Shown: positions 9,001 through 12,000 of the stretch, in pieces
Layout of the letters: every line of letters begins with the position of its first letter
Position numbering within the stretch: the first letter of the stretch is position 1
Source: a virus
Lineage: Duplodnaviria; Heunggongvirae; Uroviricota; Caudoviricetes
Length of the DNA: 45,846 nt
Strand: one strand, 5' to 3'
IMG/VR virus record: IMGVR_UViG_2671181027_000003
Made by a program: the position numbers

Positions 9001-12000
9001 TTTATGGCGCTTATTTTTGATCTGTTTTGGCTGACTTCAGACAATAAAAAACGCGCCAACAATGGCGCGTTATGGTGTGCGGATCTTGAAACGAAAAAAG
9101 CGCCCATAGTGGGCGCTATTGCTTAAATGCTGTTTTGCAGTTTTCCGATCATTTCAGACAAGCGCAAATATTCACGTTTGCGTTTACAGTCTCTTTTGCT
9201 GTTAAGCAAATCAGAAAACGTAAAATTTAATTTGTCACGTTGCGCTTTTAAGTCGTCGATTAATTCAAGTTTATAAGCGCGATATTTTGCGAGATATTCC
9301 GCGCGGATCAGGTCATAACTAATCATGATTTTTATCCTTAAAACTAGCGCCCATAGTGGGCGCTATATCCATCTAATTACGCTTTGAAAGCATCAGCCAG
9401 ATAGTTATAAAAATCATTCTTGATAAAGCGATATTGTTGCGATCCGTTTTTCGCTGCGCCCATTCCTTTGATCTTCTCGACCAGTCCGAGACGCTCGCAA
9501 AGATTGATCAGCTGGTTGGCTTGAGTGTAGCCAGCGTCCAATTTAATTTCGTTGGCTTTTTTCGCTTCATTCATCAAATCGAAAACAGCGCCATTTGTGA
9601 ATGTTTCTAATTCATCATTAATCATTTCGATTAATGCGAATACGCGAGATCCGGACATATCAGCGACTGAATAAACGCATTTACCAGACTTGATAGACTT
9701 AACCAGATAAACCAATTTTTCGAGTGAATAGCTATTGGTCATAGCTTCGCGGAAAAACACTTCTGGCGCTTGTTTGCTTGCTTTAATCGCGTAGTAAAAG
9801 ACACCAGCTAATTTCTCATCATTAACAGCGTTTAAAACGTTGTTGGTGAAGTATGCTAGTTTGGTAGACGCTGCAAGCATGTTAGCTTTATCTGCTTTCG
9901 TGTGCGTACCATTCTGATAATGATTGTTATAAGTCTGAGTGGCATTGTTGGCTGCAACTTGCAATTCATTAGCGATAACTACAGCAGCGTCGATGATGGA
10001 TTTTTTAGAGATAGCAACGTTAGACATGATATTAATCCTTATGTAATATTGATAACTTAATTTGTTATTTGTTTATCGTTAGCGTGTTTGCTTTCGATGT
10101 GAGTAATTATCGATATACAGAAATTAAAATCAAGAGTTTTTTACGCGGGAACGAAAAAAATTTTCTTCAATAAAAATCAAAGTCTTAGAAATAAAGCGCG
10201 TTTTCTCGAAGGTGTTGCCTAAATAAATTCCCTATTCGGTCAATCACCCTTATATATTTAAACTGGAATCGTGGTGGGTGAAATAAATATAACAGGAAGT
10301 GACACGTAAAATAATAACCGGACTTAGCCGGTTATTACCCTTATAGATTTATTGAGCAGACTCGACAATTTTTCGGTTAGTGTCAAAGAGTGCATCGACG
10401 AAGTGTGCCGATGACTCGCTGACATCACACCCCAACATCTCCCTTTGGTCAGCCGAACGCCCCTTACAGTTTTGGACACTCTCTCCAATTGTCTTTCCCG
10501 CTTTGACAGCGGCTGCGAACTGGTACATGCAAACCGACACATTGTCCGATGACGAACAGACGTCGTTCATGAGTGACTGAATAACTGGTTTATAGTCCAT
10601 AGCTGAGGCTGCCGTGGACGATGCGAGAAGAATTGAGGATAGTAAAATCGCTTTCATAACTTAAAACGGTAAAATTCGTTCAACCCAATCGAACATGACG
10701 ACCATCTTCCGACCATCGCCAACGCTGAGTGTGACCTGACAAGCGTCAACGCCTGAAGACACACCTTCAAGTTCACGGCCATCCGCCATGTAGACTCTTA
10801 TGGACTTCTGCATCTCATGAGCCTGGCGACAAATTTTGAAGAAATCACGGCGAGATGGCCGATTGTCCACATAGTCTGGGTGTACCGTTGTCCGACCCGT
10901 GAAGTCGTGCGCAATGTCTTCTGTCACACCTGATTCAATCGTGCTGATTCTCTCAAGTGGGAGCCTTATACGATTTTCTTTGTCGAACGGGGCAGGGCAA
11001 AGGTCGACTTTGTTGCGCGACGACATGAGACCCTGAACGTACATGCAGAACACCTGACCATCTTCCATCGTGACCCTTACAGGAATGAGAGACTTACGCC
11101 AGAACATCAGCGCCTTCTCCACGTTGGTGTAATCGCGCGGCCAGACTTCTGCAGGAATCCCGTAGGTGATGTCAGTAATATTCGTCATATCGTCACAGTG
11201 TCGTTGGTAGGATATCGATGTCACCTGCGTTGCTGGTGAACACCCGGAAGACTTTCGTCTCGCCAGCTTTGGTGATGGTCTCGCGTTCCTGACGAGCAGG
11301 GTTCAGTGCGCACAGCCCGGCGCCCTCCAGAGAAGCGCCAACAATCCATTGCCCGGCATCAAGATGGAACGTCGCTTTCTCACCGGTCTCAAGTTTCGCA
11401 ACCGTCTCACCGTTGATGAAGATGGACGCGTCGCAGCCCGCACCTATCATACCTTTGTCCCTCATAACCACCAGCGTGGTTGGCGCAGACGTCTGGTATT
11501 TGAAAACTCTGGCCTGCGGAGCCGGTTTTGCATCAGTTACAGACACAGGGCGGGATGAACATGCACTCAGGAGTAAAACGGGGATGGTAATCAGTGGAAG
11601 TAGAACGTGTTTCATGGTTTGAACTAAATCCTTATCACTTCAACGAACAAGGCGTCTTGCGACGCCCTTAATGCTTAATCGAGACGTTTGAGAATATCGG
11701 CCAGATCTTCTTTGGTCATGCCAGAGGATTCGTAAATCTTCATGACCTTTTCACGAGCCTTTGCAGAAGCCTCTAATGACGTAGCTGCTTTATCAAAATC
11801 AGCCATCGTCATGTTGGACAGCACCAGATTGATGATGTCTGCCTTTGACAGCTTAATGTTGCGTTCACGCAGTCGATTCTGAAAGGTTTCCAGCTTGTCG
11901 TTTGCTTTTTCGGTTAACTGAACCTGGCAGTGTATAGCGCGTTTCTCGCTCATGCTTACTCTCTATTCAAAACAGTGAAATCGAATGTGCTACCCACCGG

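Follow-up and report, generated by a model that had tools for sequence, protein, structure and literature searches.

A gene conserved in pHCM2/SSU5-type phage-plasmids encodes a member of the FljA family with a predicted tandem Hfq/Sm-like fold

The DNA stretch analysed here (hereafter the window; 45,846 nucleotides, IMG/VR record IMGVR_UViG_2671181027_000003, Caudoviricetes) derives from a phage-plasmid of the pHCM2/SSU5 type. On its minus strand, at positions 10661..11188, it encodes a protein of 175 aa that, by sequence comparison, is a phage-plasmid member of the FljA family and thus a relative of the Salmonella repressor of phase-1 flagellin. In structure models, which confirm a two-repeat architecture, the protein is predicted to consist of two Hfq/Sm-like domains arranged in tandem within one chain. 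Because family membership and fold point the same way, the protein is most likely, by analogy, an mRNA-binding translational repressor built on a tandem Sm scaffold. Here we report its family membership, predicted fold, synteny, distribution and mode of selection, and consider which mRNA it might target. The family is thus a known one met in a new context; in the literature searched we found neither a published paper assigning a fold to FljA nor a published description of the function of the phage-plasmid copy.

The relationship with FljA is unmistakable at the level of sequence profiles. The Pfam family PF03614 (repressor of phase-1 flagellin) matches residues 6-172 over profile positions 1-170, that is, full-length, with an E-value of 1.2e-95 and 318.5 bits against a cut-off of 24. 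PHROG 1444 covers residues 1-175 (E-value 4.7e-107), and BLASTP against P0090, a Salmonella enterica protein named phase 1 flagellin gene repressor FljA at NCBI, gives 35% identity over 169 aa (E-value 1e-35). A preliminary description of this DNA had proposed the tandem Sm fold, which stands, and had overlooked the FljA family (PF03614, 318 bits). The family is very small, with 26 cluster representatives at an E-value of 1e-3 among 1.84 billion proteins. In Salmonella phage SSU5 the gene was deposited as 'putative repressor of phase 1 flagellin', and homologs in databases are called 'transcriptional regulator'. FljA-like regulators bind fliC mRNA and stop its translation; FljA(z66) works post-transcriptionally, and the plasmid that carries it turns motile E. 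coli non-motile (PMC2652032).

The coding sequence is well delimited. The open reading frame (ORF) call and the translation place the ATG at 11188-11186 and the stop codon at 10663-10661, and the same coding sequence, of 528 nt, is annotated by RefSeq on pHCM2 (WP_000182009.1). An alternative GTG start further upstream, at 11224, is possible; the homologs start at the ATG in our alignment of the family (A1, which comprises phage-plasmid sequences and flagellin-linked Atlantibacter sequences). In SSU5 the corresponding gene, SSU5_121, has been annotated with 148 aa (positions 96897-97343 of the SSU5 record; L001:6050-6496), which cuts off the conserved N-terminal motif. A tblastn search recovered the whole 175-aa frame intact in that record (96900-97424, 96.6% identity), indicating that the deposited start lies too far downstream.

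Conservation in alignment A1 is concentrated in a few segments. Its 27 invariant columns include the FDWVxRI motif and an N-terminal motif at residues 6-20 (DITYGIPAEVWPRDY; positions 11129..11173, minus strand), where T8, Y9, G10, A13, E14, W16, P17, R18, D19 and Y20 do not vary. This motif is modelled with low to medium confidence (predicted local distance difference test score, pLDDT, 46-68). In the remainder of the protein, invariant residues cluster at the starts of two helices (PRDY and PSRRDFF) and in the β4-β5 region with FDWVxRI; Salmonella FljA retains most of them in the BLASTP alignment. The conserved regions may correspond to the places where Hfq forms its proximal nucleotide pocket.

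The fold was modelled with AlphaFold2 using 21 family members as input. The full model has a pLDDT of 85.7 and a predicted template modelling score of 0.84, and DSSP assigns it a helix (residues 21-32) with five strands (37-86) followed by a second helix (114-125) with another five strands (129-174). The first Sm/Hfq-like domain is accordingly placed at residues 18-89 (10922..11137, minus strand) on the basis of the DSSP assignment, VIA-align and hhalign. It is followed by a variable linker (residues 90-110; 10859..10921, minus strand), which shows the lowest conservation in alignment A1 and a pLDDT of 67-77. The second domain occupies residues 111-175 (10664..10858, minus strand), as supported by a model of the isolated domain, Foldseek, hhalign and a weak Pfam Hfq match. 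When the full model was compared with the PDB using Foldseek, the top matches were Hfq structures (E-value ~3e-4, probability 1.00, root-mean-square deviation (rmsd) ~1.3 Å over 57 columns), with a single WYL-domain chain (DriD) among them at rank 15. VIA-align superimposed residues 19-89 onto Hfq residues 4-67 (63 residues, rmsd ~2.2 Å) with Z values of 6.0-6.5, a range which that tool calls common. The C-terminal domain modelled alone reached a pLDDT of 81.8, and its Foldseek matches were all Hfq among those listed (ranks 1-48; E-value 1.9e-5, TM-score 0.70-0.73). Since Hfq matches span the whole Hfq core, dominate the lists and recur for each domain, we consider the Sm/Hfq assignment solid at the fold level. 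The tandem arrangement previously recognised by eye is thereby borne out, the predicted topology occurring twice with Hfq as the best match for each half; the strings quoted at the time are also in place, as both LERISTIE and DWVERILPF occur in the 175-aa translation.

Sequence-level support for the Hfq-like nature of the two halves is weak but consistent. In hhalign comparisons, domain 1 aligned with an Hfq alignment built for the purpose at P = 1.1e-4, FWRKSLIPVRVTMEDG being matched to LRRERVPVSIYLVNG, and domain 2 at P = 0.055, with Hfq residues Y25, G29, G34 and D40 kept as Y133, G137, G142 and D148. The two domains aligned with each other at P = 0.0034, and BLASTP of one half against the other gave an E-value of 0.047. 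The Pfam Hfq family (PF17209) matched residues 122-163 below threshold (E-value 0.084, 12.9 bits against a cut-off of 27). Searching PDB sequences with the protein gave no meaningful match, and a search with the family profile likewise found no Hfq chain. Features of domain 2 include the PSRRDFF helix start, an Sm1-like YMADG..LEG..VD pattern and FDWVERI where Hfq has YKHAIST. The YKHAI motif is indeed not conserved, as had been noted before: hhalign places MFDW opposite YKHA in the C-terminal domain. Nor is the arginine rim of Hfq (R16, R17 and R19) kept in domain 2, where hhalign aligns H124, E125 and Q127 with it, and in domain 1 only R31 aligns with a rim residue, Hfq R16. Tandem Hfq proteins do occur in nature: a proteobacterial genome (G072) contains two adjacent full matches to the Hfq profile within one frame of 238 aa (C4:210176-210601, L022), a useful comparator for the tandem-Sm idea.

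To place the gene within the family we used a quick maximum-likelihood tree (IQ-TREE), in which three clades were resolved. The first contains chromosomal, flagellin-linked genes (support 100). The second, which includes the window gene, is composed of phage-plasmid sequences and lies apart from all flagellin-linked genes (95 in the Shimodaira-Hasegawa-like approximate likelihood ratio test, SH-aLRT). The third is divergent and counts a Klebsiella phage-plasmid among its members. In Atlantibacter and Franconibacter, the chromosomal relatives follow a flagellin gene at a distance of ~90 nt. A tblastn search with flagellin gave no match in the window, where the fljB-fljA arrangement is absent and the neighbouring genes code for a helicase, a lipoprotein and secreted small proteins. 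In the nearest genome compared (G001), PF03614 is represented by a single gene, that of the phage-plasmid on contig C1, and the chromosome is without FljA. The same genome has two chromosomal flagellin genes (L045:1400-1490 and L046:1400-1490) with similar sigma-28-type promoters and related leaders.

In the FljA-like region, the window shares 99.9% identity with a Citrobacter freundii plasmid, 99.2% with pHCM2 of S. Typhi CT18 and, at the DNA level, 91% with phage SSU5. In PLSDB, 831 plasmids encode an FljA-like protein, which is nearly full-length in 822 of them; almost all of these carriers are non-mobilizable and, among those listed, mostly ~100-115 kb in size. The numbers of plasmids with the helicase of the window operon and with the FljA-like gene run in parallel across genera, namely 346 versus 341 in Klebsiella, 228 versus 229 in Escherichia, 92 versus 92 in Enterobacter, 62 versus 62 in Yersinia and 10 versus 10 in Cronobacter. 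Because its counts track those of the helicase, the FljA-like gene should be regarded as part of the backbone of these elements. Intact copies are also found in phage records, including SSU5, E. coli Cyrano, PhiR41_1, whose host is a K-12 strain, and six Klebsiella phages. Sequence comparisons place the gene under purifying selection, Klebsiella included, with pairwise ratios of nonsynonymous to synonymous substitution rates (dN/dS) of ~0.05-0.2. Klebsiella is a genus without flagella.

A 70%-identical copy resides on a 29.6-kb contig (JAEWTL010000044.1; L007) of a metagenome-assembled genome labelled Bacillota, and a similar fragment is labelled Gemella (P0082). As the range of the gene is otherwise strictly enterobacterial, both labels most likely stem from faulty binning or from contamination. 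Acinetobacter phage-plasmids possess a 43%-identical helicase that is not followed by a 175-aa gene, although a wider search of those records was not made. Elements of the type of A. baumannii p5768 (L053; ~110 kb) have the ParB-ABC operon and the helicase in common with the window, with a small gene behind the helicase; PLSDB holds 153 such Acinetobacter records.

In the window, the gene is the conserved end gene of an operon that runs divergently from a ParB-like operon. The first gene of the operon encodes a superfamily 2 (SF2) DEAD/DEAH helicase of 519 aa (11956..13515, minus strand; Pfam DEAD, ResIII and Helicase_C). Coupled to it is an ORF for a small protein of 92 aa (11675..11953, minus strand) for which Pfam gave nothing above threshold; Klebsiella loci L012 and L013 and the Acinetobacter relative have a gene of about this size after the helicase, and none is listed in L014. 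Next comes a putative accessory lipoprotein of 140 aa (11193..11615, minus strand), recognised in the sequence by its lipobox LLSAC, after whose stop codon the FljA-like gene begins at a distance of 4 nt. The lipoprotein slot looks optional, because three Klebsiella loci have other genes, or none listed, in the interval from the helicase to the FljA-like gene. The FljA-like stop codon lies 3 nt ahead of the start of an ORF for a 102-aa protein with a signal peptide and no Pfam family (10349..10657, minus strand). Contigs of RNA sequencing (RNA-seq) run X7 diverge from the window inside the latter gene, at 10544-10547, with loose ends on both sides. Given this divergence, and since Klebsiella elements have another gene at this place or none, the position after the FljA-like gene appears to be a variable slot. 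Three Klebsiella lineages (84%, 72% and 34% identical) share the order of helicase, variable small genes, FljA-like gene and a gene of ~216 aa.

The region is present in RNA-seq assemblies of several studies. In run X1 a single contig of 3590 nt covers 9975-13563 at a depth of 129, next to adjoining contigs with depths of 3-10, and a contig of run X7 extends over 10544-13413, with a depth of 66 against 5-10 alongside. Thus, in two studies contig ends coincide with the operon borders and depth is several-fold above that of the flanks, a weak hint that the operon from the helicase to the FljA-like gene is transcribed in carrier cultures. These contigs delimit an apparent transcription unit at 9975..13563 (minus strand), with the helicase gene at one end and the gene that follows the FljA-like one at the other. 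Runs X5 and X9 yielded only very long contigs (34-70 kb), for which RNA and carried-over DNA are indistinguishable, and a scan for promoters and terminators around the operon returned chance-level results only. Contigs of the same two runs differ from the window at 9121-9346, where 224 bases with a 67-aa gene (9123-9326) have given way to other sequence (of 284 letters in X5). The exchanged piece sits between a pair of near-identical terminator hairpins (9050-9071 and 9099-9117) and the next gene, and has the look of an exchangeable cassette.

Binding to RNA and repression of translation are inferred here by analogy with the characterised relatives, and the kind of target is an inference as well. 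Like Salmonella FljA, the window protein would bind a defined mRNA leader and block its translation. The residues kept throughout the family, at the helix starts (RDY and RRDFF) and in the β4-β5 loop, where FDWVxRI takes the place of YKHAIST, would coincide with the sites of the nucleotide pockets in Hfq. In the phage-plasmid the gene stands outside any flagellin switch, as the last conserved regulator of the helicase operon of pHCM2/SSU5/pMT1-type elements. Its principal target may be an mRNA other than, or not only, that of flagellin: either one of the element's own transcripts or a host mRNA shared by all Enterobacteriaceae. We favour such a non-flagellin or broader target tentatively, giving it somewhat less than an even chance. 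It is suggested by the near-universal retention of the gene under purifying selection in Klebsiella, which is devoid of flagella, as well as by its placement in a separate clade and its different operon context.

Several observations weigh against this proposal. No stretch resembling the fliC 5′ untranslated region (5′UTR) was detected either in the window, using blastn-short with the 5′UTRs of the two G001 flagellin genes, or in the whole of pHCM2, using BLAST. These searches returned chance-level 8-12-mers only, and, being confined to primary sequence, they are still compatible with a structured or short site. Since no sequence similar to the fliC leader was found in the element, no self-target can be named. 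The case for RNA binding is itself drawn from homology and fold, and RNA contigs prove neither the level of transcription nor its strand. That identical residues are strongly conserved in the true FljA clade and the phage-plasmid clade would also be compatible with a target, fliC mRNA, that has not changed. Finally, most host genera are flagellated, and the Klebsiella lineages may be recent arrivals.

The protein might instead be a classical flagellin repressor that binds the leader of host fliC mRNA and shuts down flagellin synthesis in carriers or during lytic growth, an explanation we regard as rather unlikely, albeit one to be taken seriously. The benefit would consist in saved resources, in hiding from flagellum-dependent phages such as Chi or in lower immune recognition, and the gene would be present in Klebsiella and Y. 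pestis as a passenger of an element moving between genera. No function other than repression of flagellin is known for the family (PMC2652032), and the full-length match to FljA together with the 27 invariant columns, N-terminal motif and FDWVxRI among them, speaks for such a role. Enterobacterial flagellin leaders are alike, both G001 genes sharing GGCG..GAGCC..GGTGGAA, and most carriers come from flagellated genera. However, an intact copy with low dN/dS is present in 341 of the 346 Klebsiella elements, the window gene falls in a clade separate from every flagellin-linked gene (SH-aLRT 95) and its operon is apparently transcribed in cultures. Moreover, flagellated carriers such as E. coli LF82, host of the phage-plasmid Cyrano, and S. 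Typhi CT18 (H:d) argue against a constitutive shut-off of fliC.

Two further explanations were considered. In one of them, the Hfq mimic proposed in the preliminary description, three chains would assemble into a pseudo-hexameric Sm ring serving as a general RNA chaperone, or else control by small RNAs would be disturbed through insertion of the protein into the Hfq rings of the host or through their capping. Both modelled domains have the Hfq fold, the Sm1-type Y..[DN]G..L.G.....D pattern is retained in domain 2, and natural tandem Hfq genes such as the 238-aa frame in G072 exist; the nearest language-model clusters outside the family also include Hfq proteins of 157-165 aa, although all scores are below 0.9 and serve as leads only. 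With the proximal-site YKH motif and the R16/R17/R19 rim not kept in domain 2, a Pfam Hfq score of 12.9 instead of 27 bits and a studied family member that is a gene-specific repressor and no chaperone, we find mimicry of Hfq very improbable. Hardly better are the odds of a role unrelated to mRNA, be it as an Sm/WYL-like sensor of single-stranded nucleic acid cooperating with the helicase on DNA, as a Rof-like inhibitor of Rho or as a DNA-binding transcription factor. Constant co-inheritance with the SF2 helicase, the database name 'transcriptional regulator' and weaker fold matches to the WYL domain of DriD (VIA-align Z 5.4-5.5) and to Rof/YaeO (6jie; Z 6.0, rmsd 3.3 Å) would be in line with it. 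Yet these matches rank below Hfq and lie in the common range of the tool, that to Rof/YaeO being middling, equal to or below many of the Hfq matches and devoid of sequence similarity. A Pfam scan of the window protein found no helix-turn-helix or other DNA-binding domain, the Acinetobacter relatives have the helicase without an FljA-like gene beside it, and the characterised relative acts post-transcriptionally (PMC2652032). An evolutionary scenario that we consider improbable, if somewhat less so than the preceding two explanations, holds that the phage-plasmid clade represents the original form of the family, a pseudo-hexameric tandem-Sm ring acting as a sequence-specific translational repressor of an mRNA of the element or of a universally present host mRNA, and that Salmonella FljA is a domesticated copy captured together with the phage-type invertase Hin. 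If true, it would provide the first gene-specific repressor with an Sm fold and trace a textbook switch back to phages.

FljA is itself a textbook regulator and is often still called a transcriptional repressor in reviews. A tandem Hfq-like architecture would offer a structural reason for its binding to mRNA and names residues to mutate. The gene described here belongs to the backbone of widespread phage-plasmids, including pHCM2 of S. Typhi, pMT1 of Y. pestis and many clinical plasmids of Klebsiella and E. coli, so that pHCM2/SSU5/pMT1-type elements carry a putative post-transcriptional regulator. Should its target be flagellin, carriage would alter motility, the display of antigens and the sensitivity to phages that depend on flagella; should it be another mRNA, the FljA family would have a second function.

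Comparison with known systems helps to define the position of the window protein. SSU5 gp121 and its orthologs on pHCM2, Y. pestis pMT1, Cyrano and the SSU5-like phages of Klebsiella occupy the same operon position, are 68-99% identical and differ from it in nothing of substance. Rof/YaeO and WYL sensors share with it the small-barrel fold class (Z 5.4-6.0), but match it less well than Hfq does and have no sequence relation to it. In addition, Rof binds Rho and consists of one domain, and WYL domains are fused to DNA-binding domains, whereas the window protein has none. Hfq is closer in structure: each half of the model has a helix and five bent strands (TM-score ~0.7, rmsd 1.1-2.5 Å over 55-64 columns), domain 2 displays the Sm1-like glycine/aspartate pattern and domain 1 an LRRERVPV-like junction between helix and strand. 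Unlike Hfq, the window protein has two domains per chain and lacks both the Sm2 motif (YKH) and the arginine rim; the two proteins show no significant match in sequence, and FljA, the relative of the window protein, is gene-specific, whereas Hfq is a global chaperone. The closest functional parallels are Salmonella FljA and FljA(z66) of the linear plasmid pBSSB1, which belong to the same family, have the same length and are collinear with the window protein over 169 residues. The motifs TYGxxAE.WPRDY, PSRRDFF.IC, [DN]G in both halves and FDWV.RI are common to them, and the tandem Sm fold, mRNA binding and the block of translation are presumably the same. In contrast to FljA, the window gene falls in a separate clade and has neither an adjoining flagellin gene nor an invertase; instead, it closes a helicase operon on a phage-plasmid backbone and is retained in hosts that lack flagella.

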